Shown: positions 688 to 62,093, counted from the stretch's first letter. The stretch: 64,000 nucleotides of DNA from an uncultured Actinomycetes bacterium (GCA_963725665.1 CAVRZA010000001.1:192001-256000), one strand, 5' to 3'. Notes: a model not told the origin generated them from the sequence alone. Translations and numbers: made by a program.

Positions 688-709
688 CGCGCGTGAGATA
701 GTGTCAAGC

Positions 710-2507: not shown

Positions 2508-2780
2508 ATGACTATGACTGAAGTCATCGCCGACCCCTCAACGGGGACGAACGTCGTCACGGACCCCTCGACTGGGCTGCGGATGGTCGAGCTCAGTCAC
2601 GTCTGGGGTCACGGCGTTCCATCTCCGCCCGGAGAGACGGACGTCAGGATGGTCCGTGCCGTCAAGCACGTGCAGCACGGGTCCTATCGCGCCGGGCCCG
2701 ATCGAGTCGAGTTCCATGCGGGCACCCGCTCGTTCCTCCCTGCTCCGTGCAGAGTGTGGGGCGAGTCAGATCGAAGCTAA
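2508..2780 (+). pseudogene. Truncated cyclase (kynurenine formamidase-like) family N-terminus
   Basis: GAGGAG RBS; MVELSHVWGHGVPSPPG...RAVKHVQHG resembles cyclase N-termini, similarity lost after ~2680. Confidence 0.55.
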
Positions 2781-2993
2781 CCGTTGAGGCGGACGCCGGC
2801 CGTTGCGCGTTCGCCGAGTCCACCGGGCAGCGTCCGGGGTCGGCATGGGCCGCGACGAGCTCGCGTCGTGTTGCCGCCGCACGCTCCGGTGGCCGCTCCC
2901 GGCGTCCGGGGCGTACGATTCCACTGTCGGCGCGGCCGGGCGAACCACGAGAACGGCGGGCCGCGGCGATGAGGATCCTTCGAGAAGGAAGAG

Positions 2994-10879: not shown

Positions 10880-11826
<947 letters not shown>

Positions 11827-11830
<4 letters not shown>

Positions 11831-18291: not shown

Positions 18292-18342
18292 CGATTCTAT
18301 CTTCGTCGCAAGGCGTTTGCCGTCAGGGGTGCACCCAACTGC

Positions 18343-22985: not shown

Positions 22986-23132
22986 GACGAGACGCTCTCC
23001 CGACCGTTCGCTTTCGAGTAGTCTATGACACGTAATCACCGTGTGGACGTCGCGATGTCAGCGACGGGTGTCGAGAGTCGACACTCGGCCGTCTCGAGTC
23101 AAACGGTCCGGCCGGTCGAGGAGAGGAACATC

Positions 23133-24461: not shown

Positions 24462-24470
24462 TCGCTGCTC

Positions 24471-25859
24471 CTACCGTAGGCGCCTGAGCAGCCTGTCGGT
24501 GGGTCTCTCGAAGGCTCTGAGCACGGCGGGAGCGGCTCTGCCGCAGCGCCGCTTGATCTCGAACTGCGCGCGACCCTTCAGCATCGCGAAGCGCATCTTC
24601 GTCGCCGAGACGTCGGCGTCGAAGGTGAGCGTGTGATCCAGGAGAAGCCCGCCGTGCTGCCGCCAGGCGCGCGTGCGCCGGGGGCCGATCCTGTCGAGGA
24701 GCGGTGTTCCGGGGAGCGGATAGGGCATGGTGAGGCCCAGGTAGTCCAGCGGCAGCGACCCGGCGAAGCGCAGGGTGTCGAGCACGGTGTCGTCGCTGTC
24801 GCCGGGGTAGAAGAGGATGAAGAACGCCCCTACCTGCAGGCCCGCGCGATGGGCCGCCTCGACGGCGCTCCTCGCCTGATCCGTCGTGATCTGCTTCTTC
24901 ATGAGCCTCAGGACCTCATCGTTGCCGGACTCGATCCCGAAGAAGATCCTGAAGCAGCCCGCGTCTCTCATCGCGCGGGCCGTCTCATCGTCGAGCGAGT
25001 CGACGCGGCCGAGGCATTCCCATGAGAAGCGCAGCCGGCGGCGGGTGATCTCGTCGCAGATCGAGATCACCCGCCGCCGGTTCAGCGTGAACACGTCGTC
25101 GGCGAACGAGATGCGGTCGTAGCCGAGAGCGAGGGCCTCCTCGATCTCGTCGACCACGTTCCCCGGCGACCGTTCGCGGTAGGAATCGCCGAAGACGACG
25201 TTGCTGCAGAACTCGCACTCGTACGGGCAGCCGCGCGTGCTCATGAGCGTGGTGATCGCGTAGCTGTCTCTGCGTCTGCCGTGGTCGATGTAGCGCTGGT
25301 TGGGGAGGAGCTCGCGGGCGGGGAAGGGGATGCGGTCGAGGTCGCGCGCGAGCGGGCGCGGGGGGGCGGGCACGCCCGCCGCGTCGGGCGCGGAGGTTCC
25401 CTGCTCGCCGGCGTCGTCTCTCCGCTGGCGGCAGACGACGCCGGGTATCTCTTTCATGTCGCCGCCGCTCGCGAATGCGGCGACGATCTCACGTATCGTC
25501 TCCTCCCCCTCGCCGCGAACGACGACGTCGAAGTGATCCCTGAAGGCCTCGGGGTCGCACGTCGGCAGCGGACCGCCTGCCACCAGCAGCCGGCAGTGGC
25601 CGCGCAGGCGGTCGGCGAACCAGAGGCAGTCGTCCAGTAGCGTGACCATGCAGGAGATGCCGACGATCTCCGCCCGCGCCGTCAGGGCCTCGGCAAGGGC
25701 CTCGTCCCTGCGCATGAACGTGCAGTCGAGCACCTGCACGGTGTGCCCGGCCTCCTTGAGGCTCGCCGCGAGGTAGGCCACGCCGAGCGGGGGGAACCGG
25801 AACCGTGAGCGGTCTCGCCGCGGGCGAAAGAACGGGTAGATGAGCAGGACGGAGGTCAT
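24471..25859 (-). CDS. B12-binding radical SAM protein (3)
   Basis: FPPLG, GGPLPT, RGEGE, RGCPYECEFC, DDVF, GIESG. Confidence 0.92.
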   Translation of the reverse strand: MTSVLLIYPFFRPRRDRSRFRFPPLGVAYLAASLKEAGHTVQVLDCTFMRRDEALAEALTARAEIVGISCMVTLLDDCLWFADRLRGHCRLLVAGGPLPTCDPEAFRDHFDVVVRGEGEETIREIVAAFASGGDMKEIPGVVCRQRRDDAGEQGTSAPDAAGVPAPPRPLARDLDRIPFPARELLPNQRYIDHGRRRDSYAITTLMSTRGCPYECEFCSNVVFGDSYRERSPGNVVDEIEEALALGYDRISFADDVFTLNRRRVISICDEITRRRLRFSWECLGRVDSLDDETARAMRDAGCFRIFFGIESGNDEVLRLMKKQITTDQARSAVEAAHRAGLQVGAFFILFYPGDSDDTVLDTLRFAGSLPLDYLGLTMPYPLPGTPLLDRIGPRRTRAWRQHGGLLLDHTLTFDADVSATKMRFAMLKGRAQFEIKRRCGRAAPAVLRAFERPTDRLLRRLR

Positions 25860-25927
25860 CGGCTCGCTGCGGTCATCGGGCCCGCGCGAAGACCATCCCT
25901 CTCGTTCATGCGCATCCCCTCGTTCAT
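25856..25927 (-). CDS. Possible 23-aa translationally coupled mini-ORF MNEGMRMNERDGLRAGPMTAASR
   Basis: ATG overlaps upstream TGA (ATGA) and its TGA overlaps the rSAM(3) ATG (ATGA); fills the gap exactly. Confidence 0.35.
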   Translation of the reverse strand: MNEGMRMNERDGLRAGPMTAASR

Positions 25928-26760
25928 CCCGTCCTCTCGATCCGCATGTCGTAGCCGAACCGCTCTAGGGTCGGCGCGAAGGAGTAGCCGAAGCCCGACC
26001 ACGCCACGCGAGAGCCGATGAGCTCTCTACCCCGGTCGAGTCGCGCGCCGTCGACCTGCCCGAGCGAGAAGGCGACGCCGCGTGTGGCGCTGACGAACGA
26101 AGCCCGCGCGGCCGTGACCTGGTTCCAGGTGCCGATCTCGTCACCTTGAAGCGCGACTCCGTCGGCATCCTCGTAGCGGTCGAAGTGCCGCGCCCCCTGC
26201 TCGTTCATCACGATCACCTCGGTGACGCCGTGGAGGGGCGCGTCGGGTGGCCGAAGCGAGACGCCGACGCGCCTCTCGTCGGCATGCACGACGTAGACCA
26301 TCGTCAGCGTAGCGACCCTCTCGGCCTCCTCGAAGGTCGTCGCCCAGCCGAACGTGCGGCGCAGGGCGTTGGACGTCGCGGTCAGCGGGCCCCGCAGCAC
26401 CGGCGAGCGGCGGTGCAGCGCCGCTAGAGCGTTCTTGGCCGCGTAGAGCGACCGGGGACTCAAGGGTGTGCCGCCGGGCCCGGCCAGACGTTCGACGAGG
26501 TTCATGTCGAAGGCGGCCGTCACGACGCGGTCTCCGTCCACGAGTTGTGAGGTCAGTTCGACCGCTCCCGGAAAGATCGTCTGGATGCCACGCTTGAGGA
26601 CGGGGACGCCGAACCCGACGCCCTCTTCCGCCAGCTCCTCTGCCCGGTCGAGCAGCAGGAGCCCCTTCTGCAGTCGTCGCGTCGGGTAGCCCCCGCCTCC
26701 ACCAGATCGGTCGCCGATCGTCAGCGCGAGGCCGTCGCGCAGAGGGATGTTCAGCTCCAC
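25924..26760 (-). CDS. Hypothetical soluble protein in radical SAM cassette
   Basis: VELNIPLRDG...EEGVGFGVPV...MNEQGA.HF...GRE..GSR.AWSGF; GAGGAG RBS, overlaps upstream gene. Confidence 0.75.
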   Translation of the reverse strand: MELNIPLRDGLALTIGDRSGGGGGYPTRRLQKGLLLLDRAEELAEEGVGFGVPVLKRGIQTIFPGAVELTSQLVDGDRVVTAAFDMNLVERLAGPGGTPLSPRSLYAAKNALAALHRRSPVLRGPLTATSNALRRTFGWATTFEEAERVATLTMVYVVHADERRVGVSLRPPDAPLHGVTEVIVMNEQGARHFDRYEDADGVALQGDEIGTWNQVTAARASFVSATRGVAFSLGQVDGARLDRGRELIGSRVAWSGFGYSFAPTLERFGYDMRIERTG

Positions 26761-33735: not shown

Positions 33736-36351
33736 CTACTTCACCGTCACCTTGACCGTCGGCGACGTAGAGCTCGCAACGGTTGTGTTGCCGGCGTAGA
33801 GCGTCCTGAAGTACCAGGCGCCCTTCGCTGACGGCCTGTAGGTCTTGCTGTAGCCACTGCTCGCGTTGAGCGCGAACGTGTTCACAGCGGTCTTCCAGGT
33901 CCCACTCGTCGTGCGGCGGTACTGGATCTTGACGTTTCCGGTCGTGGCTGGCGTGACCTTGCCCGACAGCTTGACCGTCTTGCCGAGCAGGATCGTGCTG
34001 GCCGATTTAGCCAGCGTCGTCTTCGACGCCATCTTGGCGACGGCGACCTTCATCGATGCGCTGGCGAGGTCGGTCCCCGAGTCGCCGGAGCGAGCCCACA
34101 CGACCTTGTAGGTCGTGGCGGCGGCCGGGGTGACCATGAAGGCGAAGTTGCCCTGTGCGTCGGCAGTCGTCTTCATGCCCGTGTCGACGCCGTTCGCCCA
34201 GAGGGCGAGCGACGCGCCGGCGGCGCCGGTGGCATCACCGTTCACGACCTTGCCGGTCACGAAGCCGGTGCCACCCGGGACGACGGACTTCGAGGCGAAG
34301 AGCTGAGCGAACGCGCCGCCCACCGACTTCGCCTCCTGCACGGCCTTCGTGAGACCGGCCTGGATGTAGGCGGGGTTGTGAGCGCCGTCGGATGAATCGG
34401 CCTCCCACGCCTTGTAGTTCCAGGTCGCCCGACCGATGAGGATGTATCCGGGCTTCGTGCTGTCGGTCAGGGAGTACTCGGCCGGCGGTGTGGCGGCGTC
34501 GGTGACGGCGAGGATCGCGGCCTTGGCATTGTCGGCCAGGGTCGTGGCATCACCCTGCCACGTGTTGATGTACACCTGCAGATCGTCACGCGACTCGGTC
34601 GCGTGGCACTTCGAGCAGGAGTCCTCGCCGATGTACTGCGTGGTGCCCGCCGCGGTGGCCGCCGACATCCAGTCGTCGGCCTTCTCGGGGAGCATGATCT
34701 TCATGCCGTGCGAGAAGCGGTTGGCAGCCCTGTTGGTCTTGGGCATGTGGCAGTCTTCGCACTTGACGCCCGGCATGACCTGGGTGGTGTCGGGCACGTC
34801 GACCATCACGCTGCGGCCGTGGTACATCTCGCGCTGCGGATGGCTGACCAGATGCTCCGTGAGGTCCGGAAGTCCGGTGGTGGGGTCGGCCAGCGGCTTG
34901 TAGGTGGGTGTCGTGCCGAGGACCTCCATCTGCCAGTTGTGGCAGTCCTCGCAGATGCTCTGGTTGTCGACCGTGAGACCCTTCGCACTGCGCGAGGCGT
35001 CGGTGTCGCCTGCCTTGTCGGGCTGGCGGATGACGTCGGGCGCGTTGGGGCCCGAGGGGTGCGCGGCGTGGCAGGTGACGCACTCCTGGCCCATCTTGCC
35101 GGTGTCGGTGGCGTCGAGTGTCACGTTCGCGGCGAGGGGGTCGCCCTTGCTGTTGAGGTACCCCTCACCCGTGTGGCACTTCAGGCAGCCGGGTGCCGCC
35201 GTGGCCAGGGTGAAGTGAGTCGAGGTATCGGCCCTGGCCTGGTAGGCGAGGGCGTCCGGATCGGTCTTGGCCAGGGCCTGACGCCACGAGTGCGCCGAAG
35301 CCGACCACTCGTTGTAGTAGTAGTGGCTGCCCTTAGCGTTGCTCCCGTTGGGGAACATGAAGTACGCCGTCGGGTTCGCGAGGAACTCGGTCTCGGTTGG
35401 GATGTAGGTGTACGATTGACCGCCCGACACGCCGTTGATGTCGACGAAGTTGCGCATCGGCTGGTTGGTCGTGTAGCCGTAGATGCCCAGCGTGCCGGTC
35501 ACGGTGGTGTAGCTGCCGTGGCACTGGCCGCACACCTGGGACTGGCCGAGGACGTCCAGCGTCTTGGAGACGTCAACGCCCGTGAGATGGTGCTGGGTCG
35601 CTGTCGCATCGGCGACGCCGGTGCCGTGGCAGTTCTCGCACTGGATGCTCATGCCGGGGTACGACACGGTCGGATCGGCCATGAAGTCGGCCGCCGTCTT
35701 GGTGTCGTCGCGGGCCCACTGCCTCGCCGTCGTGGCGCTGGCGGCGATGGTCGCGGCCGGGTTCGGCACCGCCTGGCCCGCCGCCGTCGTCGGCACCGTG
35801 GAGCCGAGCTGGTGGCAGCGCTGGCAGCCGTACTGGACGTCGTATAGGCCCGTGTCCGGAGCCTCCAGACCGACGGTGTAGTCACCTTCGTCGATCGGCA
35901 CAGGGTGGCCCGCCTTGGGCTCGGCCGTGAGACCTTCGACGAGGTTCCAGGGGTTGATGTTGGGATCGGTGCTGCCCATCCAGAAGTTGTACTCGGTCGC
36001 CGCGCCGCCGGCGAAGTCGCCTAGGGTCATCCAGGGCTGGCCGGCGATCGAATAGGTACCGCCGCCGTCGAACAAGGCCGGCGGGGTGCCGGCGACCACC
36101 GGCGGAGTCCCTGCGGCCCTGAAGTCGGTCCAGCTTGCCGGAGGCGTTGGCACCAGGCCTTGCTTGGCGAAGCGGCTGTGTACCGTATCGAGGGTGGTGT
36201 TGCCGAACCCACTGTGGCAACCGACGCACGCAGCCTGGCCCGCGTAGTGCATACCGTACTCGTTGACGAGACCGGCAGCCAGCGCCGTCGCCGGGACCAT
36301 CACCATGGCGACGATGGCTACGGCGAACAACAACAGTATCTTTTTCCCCAT
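33736..36351 (-). CDS. Secreted multiheme cytochrome c (9 CxxCH) with C-terminal Ig-like domains
   Basis: Signal peptide MGKKILLL...ATALA; CVGCH, CQRCH, CENCH, CGQCH, CLKCH, CVTCH, CEDCH x2, CSKCH; DSSDGAHNP tail; beta-rich C-terminus. Confidence 0.92.
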   Translation of the reverse strand: MGKKILLLFAVAIVAMVMVPATALAAGLVNEYGMHYAGQAACVGCHSGFGNTTLDTVHSRFAKQGLVPTPPASWTDFRAAGTPPVVAGTPPALFDGGGTYSIAGQPWMTLGDFAGGAATEYNFWMGSTDPNINPWNLVEGLTAEPKAGHPVPIDEGDYTVGLEAPDTGLYDVQYGCQRCHQLGSTVPTTAAGQAVPNPAATIAASATTARQWARDDTKTAADFMADPTVSYPGMSIQCENCHGTGVADATATQHHLTGVDVSKTLDVLGQSQVCGQCHGSYTTVTGTLGIYGYTTNQPMRNFVDINGVSGGQSYTYIPTETEFLANPTAYFMFPNGSNAKGSHYYYNEWSASAHSWRQALAKTDPDALAYQARADTSTHFTLATAAPGCLKCHTGEGYLNSKGDPLAANVTLDATDTGKMGQECVTCHAAHPSGPNAPDVIRQPDKAGDTDASRSAKGLTVDNQSICEDCHNWQMEVLGTTPTYKPLADPTTGLPDLTEHLVSHPQREMYHGRSVMVDVPDTTQVMPGVKCEDCHMPKTNRAANRFSHGMKIMLPEKADDWMSAATAAGTTQYIGEDSCSKCHATESRDDLQVYINTWQGDATTLADNAKAAILAVTDAATPPAEYSLTDSTKPGYILIGRATWNYKAWEADSSDGAHNPAYIQAGLTKAVQEAKSVGGAFAQLFASKSVVPGGTGFVTGKVVNGDATGAAGASLALWANGVDTGMKTTADAQGNFAFMVTPAAATTYKVVWARSGDSGTDLASASMKVAVAKMASKTTLAKSASTILLGKTVKLSGKVTPATTGNVKIQYRRTTSGTWKTAVNTFALNASSGYSKTYRPSAKGAWYFRTLYAGNTTVASSTSPTVKVTVK

Positions 36352-36505
36352 GCTCCCTCCGTTCGAGGATTACCCTATCACTCAGATCAGGTAAATCAGG
36401 TCCGTGCGCGCCCCCTTTCGTGCGGCCGCTCGGCTACCCGGTCGGTTTGACGCGGGCGCCCTCGGCGTCTAGTCGTCGAACGTGTCAGGCAGCGTCACGG
36501 AGGTT

Positions 36506-48186: not shown

Positions 48187-49137
48187 GTGGCGGACGCGAA
48201 CCAGAAGCGCATGATCGGCGAGGTCGAGGTCTCGCTCGCCGGGCTGGGGTGCAACAACTTCGGGCGCCGCATCGATGCCGCGCGCACGCGCGCCGTCGTC
48301 GACGCGGCGCTCGACGCCGGCGTGACGCTGTTCGACACGGCCGATCGCTACGGCGACGGCGCCTCGGAGGAGTTGCTCGGTCAGGCATTGCGCGGCCGCC
48401 GCGACGAGGCCCTCATCCTCACCAAGTTCGGCATGCTCAAGCCGCCCGACGGGCTGAGCGGCGGCGACCCGCGATGGGTGGCGAGGGCGTGTGACGACAG
48501 CTTGCGTCGGCTGGACACCGACCGCATCGACGTCCTCATGCTGCACGAGCCCGACCTCTCCACGCCGATCGCCGACACGCTCGCCGCCATGGGCCGCCTC
48601 GTGGAGCAGGGCAAGGTGCGTGAGATCGGCTGCTCCAACTTCTCCGTCGCGCAGCTCACCGAGGCCGCGGCCGCCGCCGCCGACGGCGGCCTGCGACCGT
48701 TCGCGTGCGTCGAGAACGAGTACAGTCTGCTGGTGCGCGAGCCGGAGCGGGGGATGCTCGACGCCTGCGATCGCCTCGGCATGAGCTTCATCCCCTACTT
48801 CCCGCTGGCCAGCGGTCTGCTCACGGGCAAGTACCGCCGCGGCCGGCCGGTGCCGGCCGGCACGCGGCTCGGCGGCGAGGGGGGCCAGCCCGCCGAGCTC
48901 GTCATCGCCGAGGCGCGACTCGCGGTAACCGAGCGCCTGGCGGGCTTCGCCGAGGCGCGCGGGCACAGCCTGCTCGAGCTCGCCCTGTCGTGGCTGGCCC
49001 AGCGCCCGCGCGTCGCGTCGGTCATCGCCGGGGCGACCTCGCCGGAGCAGGTGAGAGCCAACGTGGCGGCGACCGCCGCCTGGGTCCTCAGCGCCGGGGA
49101 GCTTGCGGAGATCGACGAGCTGACCGGCGTCGACTGA
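48187..49137 (+). CDS. Aldo/keto reductase
   Basis: GLGCNNFG, FDTADRYG, TKFG, GCSNF, PYFPLASG. Confidence 0.93.
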   Translation: MADANQKRMIGEVEVSLAGLGCNNFGRRIDAARTRAVVDAALDAGVTLFDTADRYGDGASEELLGQALRGRRDEALILTKFGMLKPPDGLSGGDPRWVARACDDSLRRLDTDRIDVLMLHEPDLSTPIADTLAAMGRLVEQGKVREIGCSNFSVAQLTEAAAAAADGGLRPFACVENEYSLLVREPERGMLDACDRLGMSFIPYFPLASGLLTGKYRRGRPVPAGTRLGGEGGQPAELVIAEARLAVTERLAGFAEARGHSLLELALSWLAQRPRVASVIAGATSPEQVRANVAATAAWVLSAGELAEIDELTGVD

Positions 49138-49189
49138 CGGAGCTCAGGCCAGGCCGCTGGAGCTCTTGTCGCGCAGCCCGTGAACTGGG

Positions 49190-50596
49190 TCAGGCTGGGC
49201 CGACGGAGCTCTTCTCGCGCAGCCGCTCGACGCTGTTGACACGCACGTTGAGCAGCCGGGCGATGCGCACCTTGGCCTCGATGCCCTTGGCGGCTCCCGG
49301 CACGCCCGTGACGACGCCGATGTCGAGCCGCTCGCGCAGCTCGCGCATGACCGTCGAGTCGCTCAGCTCCCCCAGCCCGACACCCAGCTTGTCAGCCACG
49401 TAGCGCTTCGCCTGCGGCAGCCTCATCTTCTTGAGCTGCATGCGCGCCACCAGATCTCCGGCGGTGCGGATGCCGCCCATGCCCGAGGCCAGCGAGTGGC
49501 AGACGGACATCCCCATGGGATCTCCGCCGCCCACCTACAAGCCGTCGGCTCGGCCGATCTCGACCAGGGCGACGCCGGCGCGGGTGACGACGTCCGACGG
49601 CTGTACCTCGACGGTGGGGACCCCACCCACGCCCATGCCGACGTTGGCGTGGATGGGGATCTCGGCCACCCGCGAGCACTCCTTGACGAAGGTCACCGCG
49701 CGCGCCACGTTCCAGGGCGCGGACTTGCCGGTGTTGGTCGTGCTCACCGGTCCGAAGATGTGCGCCCCCGCCCGCTCGGCGGCCTTGACTTGCTGGTGTG
49801 GCCACAGCCCTGCCAGCCGCGTGCCCTTGTACTCGAGCTCGCCGTGGAAGCCGAGGACGAGCTCGGTCGCCATGCCCACCTCGATGGCGAGGTCGGTCGT
49901 GGCGGCGAGCTCCTCGATCGCCTGTAGCGTGGCGAGGAACTCGGCGTCGCCTGCCGACCCGGTCGTGTCGAAGTCGATGCCGTCGGCGCCCATTGCCGCC
50001 ATCGCCCTGCCCATGGTCACCATGTCGCGGCGCAGGGTCTCGGCCGCCTCGAGCTGAGTCTCGCGGGCCTCCTCGATGCGTCCCTTGGGCAGCAGGTCGG
50101 CTGGGTTCGGGAAGGGGCCGTCGGGCTGAAAGTAGAGGCCCATGTTGGGCATCGCGCCGTAGAAGAGGGGCACGATGCAATCGAGGAGCGCCTGCTCCAT
50201 GCAGAGCTGCTCGAGGGCTACGAGCGCCTTGGCCGGCTTGAACGAGTAGTCGGGGTGCCCGACCTCCATGGTGTCAAAGCCCAGCGCGCGCTCCATCACG
50301 CGTATGCCCTGCTCGCGGCCGAGGGGCACGCCCACCCCGCTCGACATCTGCCCACTGTAGAGGGTGTTGGCGCAGCCGTCCTTGGTGAGGACGACCTCGT
50401 GACCGGGCGGCACGCCGGCGATGCGCCCCGGGTAGGCGAAGAGGTCGTGCAGGTAGTCGATCTCGTTGGCTTCGAGAGCGGGAATCTTCGCCTTGGCGGC
50501 CGCCGCCTCCGAGCCCTCTACGAGCTCACGCCGCAACCCGTCGGGCGTGAGCTCGACGGCGTATCCGTCACCCATGCGGGTCGTGATCGTAGTCAT
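49190..50596 (-). CDS. mtbB: Dimethylamine:corrinoid methyltransferase with in-frame TAG (pyrrolysine) at 49535-49537
   Basis: TRMGDG N-term, [57 protein letters not shown]...[17 protein letters not shown]...AKG; ORF-track pieces 49535..50602 and 49190..49534 are the same frame; 468 codons, TAG is codon 354. Confidence 0.93.
49496..49534 (-). other. PYLIS-like RNA hairpin immediately 3' of the amber codon
   Basis: GUGG..CGG.CGGA.AUCCC-AUG-GGGAU.UCCG.CUG.CCAC pairs by eye into a ~16-bp interrupted stem. Confidence 0.45.
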
Positions 50597-50671
50597 GGAC
50601 ACTCCCCCTCGCTTCGCGGTCGCTGCCGCTCGGTCAGTCGACAGGCTCGCCGATGATGGCGAGCCATCCTC

Positions 50672-51976
50672 TTAGTCGATCACCGGCTCGCCCGTCAGGG
50701 CGAGCCGCTCGATGAGGTCGGCGCCCTTGACGTTGCCCGGCTCGGCCTGTACCTGGGCGGCGATCCCCTTCATGCGCTCCCGCAGCTCCTCGTCGCCCAG
50801 CAGGCGCTCTAACGCAGCGATGAGCTCGTCCTGCTCCCAGTCGTAGGTGGGCAGGCGGGCGCCGAAGCCGGCCTCCTGGAGCCGCTGCGCGTTGTCGTAC
50901 TGGTCCCAAAAGAGCGGCAGCCCGATCATCGGCAGGCCGAAGTGGAAGCCCTCGCAGATGGTGTTGTTGCCGCCGTGCGTGATCAGCAGGTCGCACTGCG
51001 GCAGGATCGAGGGCTGGGGCAGAAACTCGTCGCCGTACATGCGCGGCCCGAGCCTCATCTGGTCCTTCAGGGCTCCCATCGAGACGACGGCCCTGTGCTC
51101 GGTCTCGGCCAGCGCGTCGATCAGGCGTTGCATGAGAGCGAGGTCCATGCAGCCCAGAGAGCCCAGCGACAGGTACACGACCCTGCCCTCGCCGGGCACG
51201 CGCTCCTCCACGGAAAAGGGCGCCTCGGTGGTGCGCACCGAGGATTCCATGCGGTGCCAGGTGGGCCCCAGCGGCTGCGCGCGCTCGTAGTCGGCCGCCG
51301 CGGGGAACTCGTACAGGTTGAGCCAGGGTGAGGTGGTGTTGAACTCGTCGCGCGGACAGGGGTTCACGCCGGCCGCGGCGCGGAACTCGTTGTGCTCGCG
51401 CAGCAGGCCCTCGTGCGCGCGACGGTACTCGTCCTTGAACGCCTGCCACTCGCTGCGGTCGCTCACCGGCAGCCCCGACAAGGGGGGCGGCAGGCAGGGG
51501 TCGCGCATCTCGAGGGGGTTGCAGGAGACGACGCGCACCCACGGCACCCCGGCCAGCTCGACGGCGGCGTAGCCGGTCACGTTGTCGGTGACGACCACGT
51601 CGGGACGGATCTCGTCCCAGATCGCCATGACGCGCTCGTGGGAGTACTTCTCGGCCGCCACGAGCGTCTCCCAGATGGGTCTCGTCACCGTGGCGATCTG
51701 CTCGATGGTGGGCGTGCGGAACTCCGGCGCCGTGACGCGGATGAACTCCGACCAGGGGTCGGCGCTCGGGTCGGGGTTCTCCTCGGGCGGGGCCGTGCGG
51801 AAGAGCCGCTCCTCGAAGCCCCTCGCCGCGAGCACGCCGGCGAACGACTCGTCGACCACGAAGACGGGTCGGTGGCCTCGCCAGCGCAGCACGTCGGCGA
51901 TGGCGGCGCAGTCGTTGGTCGGGCCCCAGGCGCCGGGCTCGGGAAAGAAGGCGACGGTCTTGGCGGCGTGGCTCAA
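50672..51976 (-). CDS. UDP-glycosyltransferase (GT1/MGT-like)
   Basis: FFPEPGAWGPTN, VYLSLGS, FLPQ, ITHGGNNT, PLFWDQYDNA; TTG start overlaps upstream TGA. Confidence 0.9.
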   Translation of the reverse strand: MSHAAKTVAFFPEPGAWGPTNDCAAIADVLRWRGHRPVFVVDESFAGVLAARGFEERLFRTAPPEENPDPSADPWSEFIRVTAPEFRTPTIEQIATVTRPIWETLVAAEKYSHERVMAIWDEIRPDVVVTDNVTGYAAVELAGVPWVRVVSCNPLEMRDPCLPPPLSGLPVSDRSEWQAFKDEYRRAHEGLLREHNEFRAAAGVNPCPRDEFNTTSPWLNLYEFPAAADYERAQPLGPTWHRMESSVRTTEAPFSVEERVPGEGRVVYLSLGSLGCMDLALMQRLIDALAETEHRAVVSMGALKDQMRLGPRMYGDEFLPQPSILPQCDLLITHGGNNTICEGFHFGLPMIGLPLFWDQYDNAQRLQEAGFGARLPTYDWEQDELIAALERLLGDEELRERMKGIAAQVQAEPGNVKGADLIERLALTGEPVID

Positions 51977-52632
51977 CGCTCGACCCGCGACCGCGCGCGC
52001 ACCTCCTCCCACTGCCGGCCCGTCTTGCGCAGGTTGAGCGCCCCGACGATCATCATGGCGCCCCAAACGAGAGCGATCAGGCCGATCAGGATGCCCACGA
52101 GCGTGACGGTGGCGCCGGGCCAGGCCATCACGAGGATGCCAAGGACGATGAGCGCGATGCCAACGGCCAACTCGCGAGCGCGGCTGTCGCCGAGCTCCCT
52201 GAACGCGGACAGGGTGCGCACGACGCCCCAGAACACGAACGTGAGGCCGGCGACGAAAGCGACGACCTTGAGCGTCTCGCCGGGCCAGGCCAGCAGGACG
52301 ATGCCGCCGATGATGGCGATCAAGGCGCCGATCGCCTGGGCTCGTCTCTCTTCTCCGCGCCGCAGAGTGATGAGCTGGACGATGCCCATGAAGACAAGGA
52401 AGAGGCCGGTGAGCCACGTAAGCGTGGCGACGCTGCCGAAGGCGTTGCTCAGCACCACGATGCCGAAGATGACGCCGACGATCCCCAGCCCGAGCACGAT
52501 CGGCCAGTTGTGCAGGGCCCAGCTCGCACGCCTGTCCAGCGCGTGTGCGTGCCGAGGACTGATGGCCACCTCCTCCTGGATGATGACCCTCTCGTCGTCC
52601 GAAGGCTCTGGCCCCCTCGGTGTGTCGTCCAT
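51973..52632 (-). CDS. HdeD/DUF308 family membrane protein
   Basis: Repeated GIV.LAWPG.T hydrophobic units. Confidence 0.85.
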   Translation of the reverse strand: MDDTPRGPEPSDDERVIIQEEVAISPRHAHALDRRASWALHNWPIVLGLGIVGVIFGIVVLSNAFGSVATLTWLTGLFLVFMGIVQLITLRRGEERRAQAIGALIAIIGGIVLLAWPGETLKVVAFVAGLTFVFWGVVRTLSAFRELGDSRARELAVGIALIVLGILVMAWPGATVTLVGILIGLIALVWGAMMIVGALNLRKTGRQWEEVRARSRVER

Positions 52633-52937
52633 CTCCGACCTCCCCTGCTCGATGCGCCCGGCGGCCGCGGCCGCCTCTGCTCCTCTCGGCTCCGGTCCGC
52701 GACCGTGACCCGCTCCTATTATCTCTTACGAATGTGCAATTGACTGCTACCGACCTGCCCTCCTGCAAGGTCGGCCAAACGCGCGCAGCGCCGCAGTGTG
52801 CCGGGTTTGGCGGCGTGGCGGGGCAGAGGAGCCGCGGGTTTAGCGCCGGGCGGAGCCACGGAACATCACAGTAGCACTGACGGTACGCGAGCTCGGGGCG
52901 GCGCAACCGACCCGTTTTCGTTCGAGGAGGACTTCCC

Positions 52938-55024
52938 ATGCTCAGTGACCTGCGCCAGCGCAAGGTGGCCCGCGTTCTGTTCGACGAGTTCCACGGTGAG
53001 GCCTGGACCATCCGCCCCGACGTCGCGCGCAAGATGCACCCCGAGCATCCCGAGGACGCCTCATACGCGGACGCGGCCGGGCACCTCGCCGAGCGCGACT
53101 TCGAGGTAGCCACCAGCACCGACGGACCCCTGACCGACGAGGTGTTGAGCGACACCGACGTACTCGTGATCGCCCAGCCCTCCGAACCGAAGTGGGAGCG
53201 CACGGTCAACGACAACTCGCCCGTCTTCTCGGACGCCGAGATCCGGGCCGTCGAGTCGTTCGTGTCGCGCGGGGGCGGCCTCCTCGTACTCGGCGAGGCC
53301 GAAGAGGACAAGTACGGCAGCAACCTCAACGAGCTGTTGGCGTCGTTCGGCATCCGCATCGAGAACGCGACCGTGCTCGACTACCGGGGCAACGGCAGCG
53401 GCCCGACCTGGATCGTCGGCGAGCCCGCGCCCGGCGCCGGCTCGCCGACCCTGCTGCACCTGGTGCGGCGGGTGCGTTTCTACCGCGCCGGGTCGCTCGT
53501 CGCCGACGAGCCCGGCGCGGTCGTGCTGCGCTCGGGCGACGAGGCGCAGCCGGCCCAGGCCGGGCTCCTGGCGGCGACCAGCCACGGCGTGGGTCGCGTG
53601 GTGGTCGTCGCCGACTCGGACCTCTTCGGCGACGACCACGTCGACGACCTCGACCACCTGCAGCTCTGGCACAACCTGATCTACTGGGCGGCGCTGCCGG
53701 CGTTCCGTTCCGACCCGCAGCCGATCGTCTCGGAGGCGGCGCGCGACCCCGCCTGGGAGCGCCTGCGCGACGAGACCAACGCACTGCGCCGCCTGCAGGA
53801 GCCCAAGGGTGAGGTCGACCTCGAGCGGCACGACATCGCGGAGGTGCGCGCCCGCGTGGCGGCGATGATCGAGTCGATCGGCGCTCTGACGCCGCGCTTC
53901 CCGCACGAGAAGGAGCACCTGGAGCGCGTGATCGACGACCTGCAGGCCTGGGTCGAGGGCGGTTGCGGCAAGCCCGACTTCACCGCTTCGCTGGCGCTCT
54001 TCAGGCCCGAGCAGCACCGCGCGACGGCATCGAGCACCTGGTCGTCTTTCCCATGTACACGCCCAACGGCTCGCCCGACACGCGCTTCGAGGCTCTCATC
54101 GTGCGTACGCCCTGGCCGTCGTTCATCGACGAGCTCGAGCGCACGCGCTACGACAACGACAAGTTCGTGCCGGTGCAGCTCGTCGACTACACCGACGGCT
54201 ACGCCAGCGAGTGCGCCGTTCTCTTCCCCGAGACTGTCAGCGTTGTCGGCCGGCCGACCAACTACTTCGGCGGCATCTTCTGCGACCGCGAGTCGGCGCG
54301 CTACCGGCGCTCGACCGACAAGGCCACCGACGTGCTGCGCGTCGACCTGCCGCCCGACGCCGAGGCGCTGGTGAGCTCGGGCGACCTCGCCCTCGAGACC
54401 TACATCCTCTGGGACCTGATCCACGACAGCTGGCACAGCCACGGCGATCTGCCCTTCGACCCGTTCATGATCCGCCAGCGGCTGCCCTACTGGATGTACT
54501 CGCTCGAGGAGCTGCGCGTCGACCTGGCAGCCTTCGTCGACGCCGGCAAGCTGGCCGACGAGGGGTTCGCCTTCGCGCGCTACGTGCAGTACGCGATGCT
54601 CTTCGACCGCATCGTGCGCTTCCCCATCACCGGCAACCGCGTGCGCAACTACGACGGGCTCGGCGGGCAGCTCCTGTTCGCCTACCTGCACAAGAGCGGC
54701 GTCGCGCGCTGGACCGACAACAGCCTGCTGATCGACTGGGAGCGTGTCGAGGACACCGTGGGTGCGCTGCGCGAGCGGCTGGAGGTCCTGTACCGCGAGG
54801 GCATCGACCTGAGCAAGGTCTCCTACTGGATCGCGGCCCACGATCTGGTCGCCGAGTACGTGCACCCCAACGTAAACTCGCAGTGGCAGAAGGAGACGCG
54901 CGTCTACTCCGACGAGGCAGAGCCGCGCGCGTGGGTCGAACGCGTGCTCGACGACGAGTTCCCGCTGAGCATGTTCTACGAGTCGGTGAAGAAGAAGATG
55001 GTCGAAGAGCCGGCGCTGGTGTGA
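52938..55024 (+). CDS. DUF6421-family protein with extra N-terminal GATase-like domain, frameshift near 54020
   Basis: VLFDEFHGEAW, FVSRGGGLLV, GRVVVVADSDLF; then HLVVFPMYTPNGS, FCDRE, WDLIHDSWHSHGDLPFDPF, LEELRVD, RNYDGLGGQ. Confidence 0.8.
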
Positions 55025-56146: not shown

Positions 56147-58525
56147 CTAGATCTCAGCCCGCAGGCGCGCGTCCAGGTAGGCCCTGATGGCACGATACTG
56201 GCTCTCGCCGTCGAGCCCGGCCTCGGCCAGCACCACCTCGCCCTGCCCGCTGCCGAGGAAGTGGCCCTTGCGGTAGGGGTGGAGGGTCGCGGCGAGGCCG
56301 GCGTCGGAGCGCACCCAGCGGTACATCGTCGGCAGCGTGAAGCCGGTGATGCCCATCGCCTCACGGGCGTGCTCCTCGGGGAAGAGCCGACGCTGCTCCT
56401 CCACGGGCAGCAGGTCGAAGAGCTCGGCGCTGGCGACGTAGAAGACCAGCGGGTCGATGCCCTCCTTCTGCGAGCAGCGGCAGCGCCTCCTCCACGAAGG
56501 CGTAGGTCACGGCGCTCTCCTGCAGCACGAGGGTCACGTCGGCCGCGTCCTGTGGCCGGCGCAGCACGTAGACGCCGGTGACGGCGGCTTCAGCGGGCGC
56601 CAGGCCGAGCGCGGCGCGGTCGAGCACGGTCTCGTTGGGCCGCGTCACGAAGGGCGCGATGAGCGCCGGCCGCTTGGCCAGGGCGGCCGCGACCAGCGGC
56701 CAGATCTCCTGCGGCTCCCAGGGCGTCAGCGAGATCATCGTGCCCAGGGGGAAGTTCTCCTGCAGGAGCTGCAGCGGCTGCGGGTCGGCGTGCGTGGGGC
56801 CGTCCTCGCCGGTCTTGAGGCCGGCGTGGGCGCACACCAGGAAGATCGGCTTGTAGGGCTCGCCGGTGACCGACTCGCGCGCCTGCGCGCCGATGGCGTG
56901 CAGGCGCGCCGCGATGTGGCCCAGCGGCGCCATGAAGGCGCCGTAGGAGGAGCCGACGCCGATGGCGTGCCCGTAGGCGGCGATGCCCGAGAGGACGCCG
57001 GTGATGGCGTCCTCGCAGATGCCGCCGATCGAGAGCAGGCGGGCGTCCGGGTTCGTCTTCGGCGTTCCAGTAGCCGTCGGCGAAGCCGCCGCCGATGGCG
57101 TTGACGCTGGTCGAGCCCAGGAGGTCGGCCGACGCGGTCAGGATCGCGCCGCCCGACGCCGCGTTGAGGTGGTGCAGGCAACGTCCGAGCTCGTTGCGCA
57201 GCGTCGTCGAGGCGCCGGGCTTGAGGCGCAGCTCCTCGGGGATCGACGCCGTCGAGCGGCCCGCGACCTCGTAGATCGTCTCGACGCGCGGCGCGCCCGG
57301 CGCGCGGCGCGCGCGCGAGCCGGTCGAGCCGCTCGCGGGCCGCCGCCAGCCGGTCGGCCAGCGCGCGGGCCATGTCCGCGTTCGCCTCGACCTGGCGCGC
57401 GGATCACCTGCAGCGACTCCCAGAAGCAGCCCTCCATGATCATGTCGCCGCCGGCCGCCCGGCAGCGCTGATCCTCGCCCTCGCAGACCGGCAGCGACGC
57501 TCTGGCGGTCGCCGGTCAGTTCGGCGAGCGCCTCGTAGAACCCGTCCGAGCAGAGCTTGTGGCCGGCGCCGTGCGACCCCTTGCCCTCGATGCCGTACTT
57601 CCAGCCCTTGTGCGTGCGGTAGATCGATGGCCGTCGGCTGTCCGTTGTCGATCGCCAGGGCGTGGCGCTGCGCGGCGGCGATCTGCTGGAAGTCGTGGCC
57701 CTCGGGCACGTAGACGACGTTCCAGTCGTGCAGGTAGAAGAGCTCCATGGGATCCCACTGCACGTAGTCGCCGGGTGTGCCTTCGTCGCGGCAGACGCGG
57801 TCGCAGTCGATCGAGGCCTGGTTCCAGTCGAGGTGCAGGATCGCGTTGCCCAGCGAGGCCGTGCCGGCCGCGGCCAGCGCTTCGGCCACGCGGCCGGGCG
57901 TGAGGCCGCCCTCGCCCTCGGAGATGTGCACGCGGGGGGCGGCCGCGCCGAAGTAGTCGGCCGCCCCGAAGGCCAGGCCGATCGAGCTGGCCACGCCGAC
58001 GCCGGAGGCGCCGGTCGAGAGCTTCACGAACGGCGTCGCCGGCGTCGGGTGCCCGTCGAGCGCTTTGGCGCGCAGCTTTGTGAAGAGCGGCGTCGAGGTG
58101 ATCGGGTTGCGGCGGAAGCCGAGCAGGTCCTCGAGGCGCAGGCGCTGCTTCTCGTCGGCCGGGCAGGAGCTCGGGACGCCCGACGCGGGTCACCTCGTCG
58201 CGCAGGGCCCACAGGGCGTAGAGGCCCATCGCCTTGTGGCCGGCCGCGTACGAGACGATGTCGGCGTCCACGCGGTCGGGGTCGCCGACGTCGTAGTCAG
58301 CGCACTCGAAGAGGATCTCGGTCATGAAACGCCCCGACGAGATCGACCCGCCGGGGTGGCCCGACATCGGCACGTAGTTGTAGAGGAGCGCGCAGAGCGC
58401 GCGGTAGATGCGGTCGAAGGTCTCGTAGCGGGCGAGGGCCTCGCGGACAGCGGGCCCTCGCCCGCCGTCATCGTCTCGCTGATGTCGATGTAGATCGCGC
58501 GCCTGGGTCCGAACGAGATCGTCAT
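56147..58525 (-). CDS. Single-chain transketolase-like ThDP enzyme, multiple frameshifts
   Basis: SGHPGGSISS, AAGHKA, DGHP, STGASGVG, EGEGG...DWNQASID, EGHDF, GLKTGEDGPTHA; pieces spread over three frames. Confidence 0.8.
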
Positions 58526-58796: not shown

Positions 58797-59107
58797 AAGC
58801 GATACCCGTCGACTGAGGCGACCCGCGTGGGAAGTGGCTGGATCGGGTCGCAGGAAGGGGGACATGCGCGAGAGGCACTCCGCGGGCGGCTCTGGCCCTC
58901 GGACGCCACCGCGCTCTCCGGGTCCCCCGGTGAGCTCCTTGAGCGATCCCTGCTCTTTTGAGCCTCCGTCGCGCTCTTTTCTGATCGATGCCCGGTCGCC
59001 TCCGCGAACGTGCTCGCTCAGACTCTGACCTGACTCGCACACCTCCGGCGCGGGTTCCAGCCCGCGGCCGGCACGACACGGTCGACACTCACGGGAGGGT
59101 GAGGCGT

Positions 59108-60502
59108 ATGGCAGACGGTACTGTGTATCCCTACATCCCGAACTCCGTGCCCGAAGTCAAGGAGGAGATGCTCAAGACGGTCGGCATCTCCAGCACGGAG
59201 GACATCTACGCGGAGATCCCCGCTCATCTGCGCTTCAAGCGCAAGCTTGAGACCCCCGGTCCGATCCCCTCGGAGTACGCCTTGCGGCGCCACGTCGAGG
59301 AGATCCTCGACAAGAACAAGGACTGCAAGCAGTACATCGGCTTCCTCGGCGGCGGCGTGTGGAACCACCACGTCCCGTCGGTCGTCACCACCATCATGGA
59401 ACGCGACGAGTTCCTCACCTCCTACGTCGGCGAGGCCTACGCCGACCACGGCAAGTGGCAGGCTCAGTTCGAGTTTGCCAGCTGCATCGCCGAGCTCGTC
59501 GAGATGGACATGGTCAACACGCCCACCTACGACTGGGGCATGGCCGCCGCCACCTCGATCCGCATGGCCTCGCGCATCACGGGACGCGGCGAGGCCCTCT
59601 ACGCCGCCAACATCGGCCCCGAGCGTCTCTCCTGCATGAAGAACTACGCTTGGTCGGCGGTGCCCACCTTCACCGAGGTGGCCATCGACCCCACAACGGG
59701 GCTCACTCGATCTGGCCGACCTGAAGGCGAGACTCACCGACAAGGTGGCCGTCTTCTACTTCGAGAACCCCGCCTTCCTGGGCATGGTCGAGACGCAGGC
59801 GGCCGAGATCGTCGAGCTCGTGCACGCCGCCGGCGCCCTCGTAGCTGTGGGCGTCGACCCGATCTCGCTCGGCGTCCTCGAGGCCCCCGGCGTCTACGGC
59901 GCCGACATCGCCTGCGGCGACGTGCAGCCGCTGGGCATCCCCATGCAGGCCGGTGGCGGCCAGGGCGGCTTCGTCGCCACCCAGGACGAGCCGCGGTTCA
60001 CCGGCGAGTTCCCCTCGCTGCTCTTCGGCGTCACGCCGACGGTCGTCGAAGGCGAGTACGGCTTCGGCGAGGTCTTCTTCGAGCGCACCTCCTACGCCTC
60101 GCGCGAGAAGGCCAAGGACTTCCTCGGCACGATGGCCCAGCTGCACGGCATCGGCGCCGGCGTGTACCTGTCGCTGATGGGTCCGCAAGGGCATGCAGGA
60201 GCTCGGCGAGGGCATCATGCAGCGCTCGGCGTACTGCGCGGCCCGGCTTGCCGCGCTGCCCGGCGTCAAGGCGCCCGCGTTCTCGGCGCCCTTCTTCAAG
60301 GAGTTCGTGGTCGACTTCAACGGTACCGGCAAGACGCGTGGCCGAGATCAACAAGGCCCTGCTCGCGCACAAGATCCACGGCGGCAAGGACCTCTCCTCG
60401 ATGTTCCCCAGCCTGGGTCAGAGCGCGCTCTACTGCGTCACCGAGGTCCACACCAAGGGCGACCTCGATGCGCTCGTCGGCGCGCTGAAGGAGATCCTCT
60501 GA
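59108..60502 (+). CDS. gcvPA: Glycine dehydrogenase P-protein subunit alpha-like, frameshifts near 59707, 60190, 60338
   Basis: PYIPN, FLGGG, EFLTSY, ENP..G, DPISLG, QPLGIP, REKA, FFKEFVV, CVTE. Confidence 0.85.
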   Translation: MADGTVYPYIPNSVPEVKEEMLKTVGISSTEDIYAEIPAHLRFKRKLETPGPIPSEYALRRHVEEILDKNKDCKQYIGFLGGGVWNHHVPSVVTTIMERDEFLTSYVGEAYADHGKWQAQFEFASCIAELVEMDMVNTPTYDWGMAAATSIRMASRITGRGEALYAANIGPERLSCMKNYAWSAVPTFTEVAIDPTTGLTRSGRPEGETHRQGGRLLLREPRLPGHGRDAGGRDRRARARRRRPRSCGRRPDLARRPRGPRRLRRRHRLRRRAAAGHPHAGRWRPGRLRRHPGRAAVHRRVPLAALRRHADGRRRRVRLRRGLLRAHLLRLAREGQGLPRHDGPAARHRRRRVPVADGSARACRSSARASCSARRTARPGLPRCPASRRPRSRRPSSRSSWSTSTVPARRVAEINKALLAHKIHGGKDLSSMFPSLGQSALYCVTEVHTKGDLDALVGALKEIL

Positions 60503-60533
60503 CCCCGGCCCGGCTCGAGAAAGGAGAGAGTCC

Positions 60534-62093
60534 ATGGGCATCGTGAAAGTGCGCAAGAACTACCATCAGGCTCGCTGGGACGAGCCGATGATCTTCGAGC
60601 TCTCCACGCCGGGCGTGCGTGGCATCCTCCCGCCGGAGCCGGAGAAGGAGATCGCCGACGCGGTCGGCGACGTCGCCGGCAAGCTGCCGACGGGCATCCG
60701 CCGCAAGAAGCCGCCGGCGCTGCCCGAGGTCGACCAGAAGCAGGTCCTCTCCCACTTCCTGCACCTCTCGCAGGAGACGCTGGGCTCGAACCTGAACGCC
60801 GACCTGAGCCAGGGCACCTGCACGATGAAGTACAACCCGCGGGTCAACGAGGACCTCGTCATGGACCCGCGCTTCGCCTACGTGCACCCCTGGCAGGACG
60901 ACGACACGATGCAGGGCGTGCTCGAGATCTACTACAAGTTCGAGCAGATCCTCAAAGAGGTCTCGGGCATGGACCGCTTCACCCTCCAGCCGGGGGGCGG
61001 AGCGCACGCGGTGTTCACTGCGGCCTCGATCATCCGTGCCTACCATCGCGACCGCGGCGAGCTCGAGCAGCGCGACGAGGTCGTCACGACCATGTTCTCG
61101 CACCCCTGCGACGCCGCTTCGCCGCACACGGCCGGCTTCAAGATCGTCACCCTGATGCCGAACGAGGACGGCTATCCCGACCTCGACGCGCTGAAGGCGG
61201 TCGTCGGTCCGCACACGGCGGCGGTGCACATCACCAACCCCGAGGACACCGGCATCTACAACCCGCTGATCGACAAGTTCGTCGATGTCGTGCACGACGC
61301 CGGCGGCGTGTGCTTCAACGACCAGGCCAACGGCAACGTGCTCATGGGCATCGCCCGCACGCGCGACGCCGGCTTCGACCTCTGCCACTACAACGTGCAC
61401 AAGACGTTCGCCTCGCCGCACGCCGGCTCGGGTCCCGGCACCGGCGCCATGGGCTGCCGCGAGGAGTTCGCCAAGTACCTGCCCTACCCGACGGTGGAGT
61501 ACGACGAGAAGAGCGGCCGCTACTACCTCGACTACGACCGCCCCGAGTCGGTGGGCAAGATCAAGGGCTTCCTGGGCTCCGCCGGCGTCGTGCTGCGCGC
61601 CTACGCCTGGTGCGTCATGATGGGCCCCGACGGCCTGCGCGAGACGGCCGAGATGTCGGCCCTCAACAACAACTACTTCCTGAAGATGCTCGAGAAGGTG
61701 CCCGACCTGTACTACCCGTACGCCAAGGGGCATCGCCGCCTCGAGGAGGCACGCTGCAGCTGGGAGAGGCTCACCGAGAAGACCGGCGTCGGCACCGACG
61801 ACATCCTGCGCCGCGTGGGCGACTTCGGCCTGCAGCACTACTGGTCGAGCCACCATCCCTGGGTGGTGCCCGAGCCGATGACCCTCGAGCCCTGCGAGAC
61901 CTTCTCCAAGGAGGACCTCGAGGAGTACGCGGCGGTGCTGGAGATCATCGCCAAAGAGGCCTACGAGGACCCCGAGATGGTCAAGGGAGCGCCGTACAAG
62001 TGCGCCACGCACAAGCGCGCCGCCGAGGAGGAGCTCGACGATCCCGACAAGTGGGCCACGACCTGGAAGGCCTACAAGCGCAAGCACGGCTAA
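60534..62093 (+). CDS. gcvPB: Glycine dehydrogenase P-protein subunit beta-like
   Basis: GTCTMKYNP, QPGGGAH, TNP, NVHKTF (PLP Lys), PHAGSGPG, EPCET. Confidence 0.9.
   Translation: MGIVKVRKNYHQARWDEPMIFELSTPGVRGILPPEPEKEIADAVGDVAGKLPTGIRRKKPPALPEVDQKQVLSHFLHLSQETLGSNLNADLSQGTCTMKYNPRVNEDLVMDPRFAYVHPWQDDDTMQGVLEIYYKFEQILKEVSGMDRFTLQPGGGAHAVFTAASIIRAYHRDRGELEQRDEVVTTMFSHPCDAASPHTAGFKIVTLMPNEDGYPDLDALKAVVGPHTAAVHITNPEDTGIYNPLIDKFVDVVHDAGGVCFNDQANGNVLMGIARTRDAGFDLCHYNVHKTFASPHAGSGPGTGAMGCREEFAKYLPYPTVEYDEKSGRYYLDYDRPESVGKIKGFLGSAGVVLRAYAWCVMMGPDGLRETAEMSALNNNYFLKMLEKVPDLYYPYAKGHRRLEEARCSWERLTEKTGVGTDDILRRVGDFGLQHYWSSHHPWVVPEPMTLEPCETFSKEDLEEYAAVLEIIAKEAYEDPEMVKGAPYKCATHKRAAEEELDDPDKWATTWKAYKRKHG

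Follow-up and report, generated by a model that had tools for sequence, protein, structure and literature searches.

A single in-frame TAG interrupts an mtbB gene

Positions 49190-50596 of a 64-kb stretch of DNA (CAVRZA010000001.1, 192001-256000; hereafter the window, in which positions are counted from the first letter) hold a gene for a dimethylamine:corrinoid methyltransferase, mtbB, whose reading frame is interrupted by one TAG codon. The gene lies on the minus strand and runs from an ATG at 50594-50596 to a TGA at 49190-49192, giving 468 codons when the TAG is read through. That TAG, at 49535-49537, corresponds to codon 354 and is the only internal stop in the frame, and translation of 49190-50596 on the plus strand gives no meaningful protein. 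An earlier reading of this DNA, referred to below as the original prediction, had described two pieces in one frame that are split by a single TAG and give 468 codons when joined, and our translation agrees with it; the coordinates it gave also hold, but it left the strand unstated, and the gene belongs to the minus strand. The features of the locus are the following:

49190-50596, minus strand: mtbB, dimethylamine:corrinoid methyltransferase (translation, PF09505, TIGR02368 and GC content at third codon positions, GC3)
49535-49537, minus strand: in-frame TAG, codon 354, the predicted pyrrolysine (Pyl) codon (alignment with related loci)
49193-49534, minus strand: the 114 codons of mtbB that lie 3' of the TAG (PF09505 positions 356-462, ratio of nonsynonymous to synonymous substitution rates [dN/dS], coding signature)
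49438-49537, minus strand: match to PYLIS_2 whose first bases are the UAG; a stable hairpin follows immediately (Rfam, folding)
50602-50608, minus strand: Shine-Dalgarno-like GGGGGAG, 5 nt upstream of the ATG (sequence inspection)

Translation of the 114-codon part would require read-through of the TAG. A promoter scan of 48900-52100 returned no promoter-like site, and the two terminator-like sites found in the same interval were discarded, as they lie inside coding sequence and are consistent with noise.

When scored as one product of 468 residues, the protein matches Pfam PF09505 with 631.5 bits (cutoff 25; residues 5-461 on profile positions 4-462 of 463) and the NCBIfam equivalog TIGR02368 with 529.7 bits (cutoff 369.1; residues 3-461 on positions 4-464 of 466). 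The MtbB similarity that had been claimed for both sides of the TAG was recovered when the pieces were scored separately, since residues 1-353 alone match PF09505 positions 4-353 with 453.4 bits and the 114-residue tail alone matches positions 356-462 with 155.1 bits. Because the two pieces match the profile head to tail, the TAG falls at profile position 354/355. Chance comes nowhere near to explaining such an arrangement. On these matches, the feature is a real gene for a full-length MtbB orthologue.

The structures of MtmB and of the MttB family are TIM barrels. A sequence search of the PDB found no MtbB relative. AlphaFold2, run with a 21-sequence alignment, gave a confident model, with a predicted local distance difference test score (pLDDT) of 87.9 and a predicted template modelling score (pTM) of 0.90, with residue 354 placed in a beta-strand formed by residues 352-356. 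Comparison of the model with the PDB by Foldseek retrieved generic (beta-alpha)8 barrels (HisF, PriA, homocitrate synthase and aldolases) with probabilities of 0.98-1.00, but with query TM-scores of only 0.25-0.37, and no methylamine methyltransferase was among the Foldseek matches listed. The predicted fold is compatible with a barrel enzyme and adds little to the sequence assignment.

The TAG occupies the pyrrolysine column of MtbB

A scan of a genome collection for MtbB gave 207 relatives, from which 78 loci were kept; the best-scoring gene of each locus was used, and second copies in two of them (L011 and L044) were left out. The nearest loci, L001 (79% identity) and L012 (64%), lie on two contigs of "MAG: Actinomycetota bacterium isolate bog_752", a metagenome-assembled genome (MAG), and are followed by L002 (61%, uncultured Eubacteriales), by archaeal copies (50-55%) and by three MAGs labelled Thermoleophilia (48-50%). 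In 78 of the 78 loci the codon aligned with codon 354 of the window gene is TAG, and it is the sole TAG in each aligned gene; the TAG-bearing loci include cultured strains of Methanosarcina, Methanolobus and Methanimicrococcus. The alignment of this TAG with the Pyl column of methanogen MtbB, on which the original prediction had relied, is thereby borne out. Column 354 is also invariant in the full-length alignment (21 of 21 sequences), and the window protein retains all invariant columns of this alignment on both sides of the TAG, those after it including G356, G358, D359, G362, M363, H367 and G380-R385, among others.

Protein databases carry the trace of the same codon. A database search scored 8000 candidates, of which 2650 were significant, and among the best 120 homologues 90 are exactly 353 amino acids long, 119 cover at most 75% of the query and 119 end at or before the TAG column. 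The 353-residue homologues indicate that gene callers cut at the same codon; 119 of the best 120 relatives are stored as truncated proteins. The sole exception among the 120, P0082, has 468 amino acids, 52% identity and a glutamine at the TAG column. The 21 best database clusters are 80-96% identical to the window MtbB; only P0017 is an NCBI record, the rest coming solely from jgi, ena or lgn sources. The clade of the window MtbB is thus represented by many database records.

The MtbB of methylotrophic methanogens, for which Paul, Ferguson and Krzycki (2000) is reportedly the reference, is the natural comparison. Like the enzymes of Methanosarcina and other methanogens, which have 466-467 amino acids, the window protein (468) carries a single TAG at the same column, scores above the TIGR02368 equivalog cutoff and has an Rfam mtbB PYLIS match, and its identity to copies from Methanosarcinales and Methanomassiliicoccales is 50-55%; the methanogen-like length that had been noted earlier is therefore correct. 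Unlike them, it comes from a bacterial host of about 70% GC in which TAG is a common terminator (12 of 39 genes), has no corrinoid protein gene in the window and belongs to a separate, well-supported bacterial clade. In methanogen methylamine methyltransferases the catalytic residue is the Pyl at the TAG position. As judged from the alignments, the internal UAG of the window mtbB is the homologue of the methanogen MtbB pyrrolysine codon.

Coding sequence continues past the mtbB TAG, and ordinary TAG codons terminate

In a scan of all TAG codons of the window, the GC contents at the three codon positions of mtbB (GC1/2/3) were 0.70/0.51/0.93 before and 0.71/0.46/0.92 after the TAG, with values of 0.76/0.46/0.94 and 0.66/0.48/0.90 in the immediately adjoining sequence, and no other in-frame TAG in the window was flanked on either side by a genuine coding signal in this way. 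TAG codons at 33839 and 33851 on the plus strand, considered as further Pyl sites, were rejected as apparent frame shadows, since they lie opposite a multihaem cytochrome gene. The two pieces of mtbB each have a GC3 of 0.91, as in neighbouring genes, and the window has about 0.70 GC throughout; given this host-like composition, mtbB does not look recently imported.

Substitution patterns were estimated by the Nei-Gojobori method, which is rough in a codon-biased gene of 70% GC. Against L001, the closest relative, dN/dS is 0.118 upstream of the TAG (353 codons) and 0.23 downstream (111 codons), values that indicate purifying selection. In the comparison with L002, sequence upstream of the TAG is saturated, and that downstream gives 0.17. 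The 114 codons after the TAG contain no further stop or frameshift. Nothing in these comparisons suggests that constraint is relaxed after the TAG.

The 39 family-supported genes of the window end in TGA (24 genes), TAG (12) or TAA (3). Continuation of the coding signature past a stop was defined as a GC3 of at least 0.82 with a GC2 of at most 0.62, in genes whose frame stays open for at least 30 codons beyond the stop. By this measure the signature continues past none of 8 ordinary TAG-ending genes but does continue past the mtbB TAG; of the 13 TGA controls, 1 shows continuation, and there the following gene happens to be in frame. TAG is a working terminator in this genome, and the one in mtbB stands apart as a special site.

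The PYLIS match probably reflects mainly coding conservation

The 100 nt beginning at the UAG match Rfam PYLIS_2 (RF02509, the mtbB pyrrolysine insertion sequence) with 68.1 bits against a gathering threshold of 36, over model positions 1-100 of 100, and fold with a minimum free energy of -57.2 kcal/mol (z = -3.07; 2 of 200 shuffled sequences were as stable). The alignment to the model produced by cmscan, however, contains several non-canonical pairs in hairpin 1, and covariation among 10 bacterial sequences gave no support for the structure (RNAalifold term +0.19; double changes in 4 of 27 pairs). Nine sequences were folded, of which the clearly stable ones are that of the window and that of a Methanosarcina locus, L035 (z = -2.78); the other seven relatives range from -0.33 to -1.70, the two closest having values of -0.60 and -1.07. 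The conserved 3' helix corresponds to nearly invariant coding sequence. With no covariation and with closest relatives that are not unusually stable, we rejected PYLIS as a conserved RNA structure; we read the PYLIS_2 match as mainly coding conservation plus a local hairpin, for which a structural role is possible but finds no support here.

We consider it doubtful that the unusually stable hairpin, which starts two bases after the UAG, makes Pyl insertion site-specific as a PYLIS-like signal in a high-GC actinobacterium with a TAG-rich genome. If it did, a stand-alone mtbB paralogue could be decoded far from pyl and corrinoid genes without general read-through of stops.

The nearest genome loci belong to bog_752

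A quick IQ-TREE phylogeny (LG+G4, 79 rows, none left out) groups the window protein with L001, with a Shimodaira-Hasegawa-like approximate likelihood ratio test (SH-aLRT) support of 99, and then with L012 (support of 100). The copies labelled Thermoleophilia form a separate clade with rows from Syntrophomonadaceae and Desulfobacterales, in a region with a long-branch warning. Gene order differs among these relatives: L001 carries mttB(TAG) (at 3-1514), a corrinoid protein gene, mtbB(TAG) and hemB; the Thermoleophilia-labelled L003 and L004 carry a solute-binding protein gene, mtbB(TAG), mttB(TAG) and a corrinoid protein gene; and L012 is a stand-alone mtbB beside genes for a TetR regulator and an aldehyde dehydrogenase. 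No pyl genes were found in the flanks of L001, L012, L003 and L004.

The window gene resembles the bog_752 copies in having the TAG at the same codon and in being their sister in the tree, and L012 likewise stands alone. It differs in that L001 lies in an operon whereas the window copy is without such partners, in the GC content of the contigs (0.65-0.66 in bog_752, about 0.70 in the window) and in showing no common gene order. Given the 79% identity, the source of the window is probably a different species or genus from bog_752. Like the Thermoleophilia-labelled L003, L004 and L005, whose genomes bear an Actinomycetota label, it has a high GC content (0.70-0.72 in these contigs) and a TAG-interrupted mtbB; unlike it, these copies, only 48-50% identical, fall in a different clade, and their mtbB is preceded by a solute-binding protein gene and directly followed by mttB(TAG) and a corrinoid protein gene.

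Three side observations concern these loci. One 21-kb stretch of L003 contains MttB-family genes at 2451-4076 and 11433-12899, one of them uninterrupted (542 amino acids, no TAG) and the other a TAG-interrupted mttB. In L003 (20642-21373) and L004 (20359-21372, minus strand), genes of the DUF1786 and ornithine cyclodeaminase/mu-crystallin families follow the operon of mtbB, mttB and corrinoid protein genes at a downstream distance of about 8-10 kb. Finally, the MtbB of L007, a 2-kb contig of a Tissierellaceae MAG, is nested at very short distance within the Methanomethylovorans clade, a placement which may be a binning artefact rather than transfer.

Genomic context of mtbB

Upstream of mtbB and in the same direction lies a gene for a family-1 (macrolide-type) glycosyltransferase, which ends 75 nt before the ATG, and downstream lies a convergent aldo/keto reductase gene. 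The sole hint of methylotrophy in the window is a URO-D family gene at 1-585 (minus strand), 48 kb away and truncated by the left edge, with weak similarity to MtaA/CmuA-type methylcorrinoid methyltransferases (45.6 bits, cutoff 235.4); the gene may mark the border of a cluster for corrinoid methyltransferases situated beyond the 64 kb. A GntR/FCD regulator gene at 674-1423 (plus strand) is divergent from it.

Other genes of the window deserve mention in their own right. Three adjacent genes for B12-binding radical SAM proteins occupy 21534-25964 (21534-23057, minus; 23022-24458, plus; 24474-25964, minus) and have below-cutoff matches to methyltransferases of the BchE, HpnJ, PhpK and ApyD types. 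The multihaem c-type cytochrome mentioned above (33739-36369, minus strand, 877 residues) contains cytochrome c7, c552 and MtrC/MtrF-like segments; such a protein is unusual in a putative actinobacterium and is a hint of electron transfer of an extracellular or anaerobic kind. A fusion protein of 767 residues (16042-18342, minus strand) combines a class II aldolase/epimerase (residues 29-202) with a class-III aminotransferase resembling GSA aminomutase (residues 331-762). DUF6421 is split over overlapping frames at 52881-55021 (plus strand), with profile positions 1-103 in an open reading frame (ORF) at 52881-54371, where a GIFT/DUF4350-like N-terminal part precedes the DUF6421 segment, and positions 85-425 in an ORF at 53813-55021; the switch of frame near 54000-54060 suggests a frameshift, either real or due to assembly error. 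A split transketolase (56364-58189, minus strand), whose N-terminal and pyrimidine-binding halves are separate ORFs, adjoins a split glycine dehydrogenase (gcvPA and gcvPB, 58988-62090, plus strand).

Proposed decoding of the mtbB TAG and the alternatives to it

Considering these results jointly, we think it likely that the window carries an intact mtbB whose UAG is decoded by a Pyl system encoded elsewhere in the genome, in a host that is probably an Actinomycetota member related to the genus Bog-752. On this reading the gene is intact and has been maintained vertically. Its UAG would be decoded by an amber-suppressing tRNA-Pyl that PylRS charges with pyrrolysine made by PylBCD, all of them encoded elsewhere in the genome, and the product would be an enzyme of 468 residues with pyrrolysine at position 354. 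This MtbB would transfer a single methyl group of dimethylamine to the cobalt of a corrinoid protein, whose gene would likewise lie elsewhere, and monomethylamine would be released; a methylcorrinoid methyltransferase would be next to take up the methyl group and hand it on. The window mtbB is very probably functional.

Several observations weigh against this reading. Among 60 ORF translations of the window, NCBIfam models found no pylS, pylB, pylC, pylD, mtbC/mttC or ramA, and a Pfam scan of 51 window ORFs likewise returned no Pyl, corrinoid-protein or RamA genes; ARAGORN found no tRNA in the 64 kb, and a permissive Rfam scan gave no tRNA-like match. Since neither pylTSBCD nor a tRNA, a corrinoid protein or RamA turned up in the 64 kb, Pyl decoding by the host is something that we infer. 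The neighbours of mtbB have no evident tie to methylamine use. TAG is not avoided, as it ends 12 of the 39 genes, and back-up in-frame stops are no closer after TAG (median of 43.5 codons) than after TGA (47.5). Against L012, the second-closest relative, dN/dS is higher (0.46 upstream and 0.58 downstream), and the upstream dS against L001 is near saturation (1.16). As to the host, its taxonomy rests mainly on the MtbB tree, which is a quick one with SH-aLRT support only and in which L001 was flagged for unusual composition, and there is no gene order in common between the window and the 78 loci, including the bog_752 and Thermoleophilia contigs, where only paralogue-level matches of 24-40% identity were found.

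The identity of the host is the part of this reading with the most serious competitor. The most probable host is an uncultured Actinomycetota bacterium of high GC content that is related to the Thermoleophilia genus Bog-752. The actinobacterial host proposed in the original prediction is the likeliest one given that the window MtbB is sister to the bog_752 copies (SH-aLRT of 99 and 100), but it stays short of proof, the other genes giving weak hints. The phylum signal from window genes other than mtbB is weak, and the 64 kb contain no marker genes. The window DUF6421 protein matched 10 records of a plasmid collection, the five best of which are all from actinomycete genera (31-58% identity), while the best match of the window succinic semialdehyde dehydrogenase in the same collection is a Streptomyces record, with Halorussus records equally close. 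It is thus conceivable, although we regard it as unlikely, that the contig belongs to a high-GC organism from a different phylum, which would have come to share the MtbB lineage through horizontal transfer, or that the bog_752 contigs are mis-binned. The placement does depend on a single gene family with known transfers between lineages; the MtbBs with an Actinomycetota label are spread over two separate clades that also contain rows from Bacillota and Desulfobacterales; synteny to the related contigs is missing; the dehydrogenase is about as close to haloarchaeal plasmid records as to Streptomyces; and L001 is a contig of 5.9 kb. These points are countered by the occurrence of the nearest copies on two independent bog_752 contigs, one of them of 45.7 kb, by the actinomycete origin of the five best DUF6421 matches among the 10 records, and by a Bog-752 MAG which, in an excerpt of PMC10805028, is listed with its MtbB split into two adjacent genes at the point of the TAG.

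Somewhat less probable again is a silent or decaying gene, in a host that never had or has lost the Pyl machinery, where the UAG would terminate translation and leave an inactive fragment of 353 residues. The 64 kb without pyl genes, tRNA, corrinoid protein or RamA would fit such a gene, as would the position of mtbB alone among unrelated genes and the frequent and effective use of TAG as a terminator in the window. The 114 codons after the TAG, however, show no decay: they contain no stop or frameshift, reach 155.1 bits, give a dN/dS of 0.23 against L001 and keep the invariant residues and the native codon composition. Moreover, bog_752 has the stand-alone L012 beside the operon copy L001, so that a lone mtbB is normal in the lineage.

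A third possibility, which we consider very improbable, is a split gene in which the UAG terminates, translation restarts at the adjacent GTG, and parts of 353 and 114 amino acids assemble into a Pyl-free enzyme. There is indeed a GTG directly after the TAG, and a 114-residue ORF is called from it, but this GTG is a conserved Val/Ile codon of a family motif, and a stop at a mere gene boundary should drift (TGA being the commonest, 24 of 39), yet it is TAG in all 78 loci, archaeal and bacterial.

Genome-wide reassignment of TAG to pyrrolysine, which an excerpt of PMC13695967 describes, citing Kivenson et al. (2025), as recently reported for some archaea, has even less to recommend it here and was rejected. 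Nothing beyond the presence of a Pyl-type gene speaks for it, whereas 12 of 39 genes end in TAG and the coding signature continues past 0 of 8 ordinary TAGs, much as past the TGA controls (1 of 13); ordinary TAGs terminate. Because they do, Pyl insertion must be partial or conditional rather than a genome-wide reassignment, as is likewise the case in other Pyl-using bacteria. In Firmicutes, according to a passage in PMC8318568 that cites Prat et al. (2012), transcriptional feedback loops control the expansion of the code, and a feedback-controlled expansion of this kind fits a window genome that still uses TAG as a stop. A TAG created by sequencing or assembly error, finally, has next to no chance of being the explanation, since all 78 independent loci have TAG at this column and 119 of the best 120 database homologues are truncated there.

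Relation to known systems and significance

We thus favour an mtbB decoded with pyrrolysine, and non-methanogenic bacteria that use Pyl-dependent methylamine methyltransferases are already represented by Acetohalobium arabaticum, Bilophila wadsworthia and marine Deltaproteobacteria. The window gene resembles these cases in its bacterial setting but differs from them in that their systems centre on MttB, whereas it is an mtbB; in the portion of PMC7593587 that treats them, Bilophila genomes are described as being without a dimethylamine methyltransferase gene.

In the Actinomycetota, the original prediction had considered a Pyl-using host unusual, which overstates the rarity: PylRS as well as Pyl-encoding mttB and mtbB are already in print for the phylum in the passages of PMC9630628 and PMC10805028 that bear on it. 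Guo et al. (2022) mention PylRS genes in two Actinobacteria (an excerpt of PMC9630628), the supplement to the same article, in the part concerned, lists PylSc for Actinobacteria_bacterium_ADurb.BinA094 and Thermoleophilia_bacterium, and a 2025 review repeats the count of two Actinobacteria (a passage in PMC11764691). Ellenbogen et al. (2023) state, in an excerpt of PMC10805028, that Pyl-encoding mttB and mtbB are expressed by MAGs of the Actinobacteriota, and count Bog-752 among the methylotrophs with the highest activity; an extract of the supplement gives the affiliation of Bog-752 as Actinobacteriota; Thermoleophilia; UBA2241. Our literature search for Pyl or mtbB together with Actinobacteria, Actinobacteriota or Actinomycetota yielded nothing further than PMC9630628 and PMC10805028 on the phylum, and no report of experimentally proven Pyl insertion in an actinobacterium. 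Pyl-type mtbB in Actinomycetota is already described, and the window gene is a further genuine case.

Since standard gene callers split mtbB, as the truncation of 119 of the best 120 relatives illustrates, bacterial methylamine metabolism is under-counted. If the mtbB UAG is decoded as we propose, an uncultured high-GC actinobacterium would use the 22nd amino acid to demethylate dimethylamine, and this host would compete with methylotrophic methanogens for a methane precursor.

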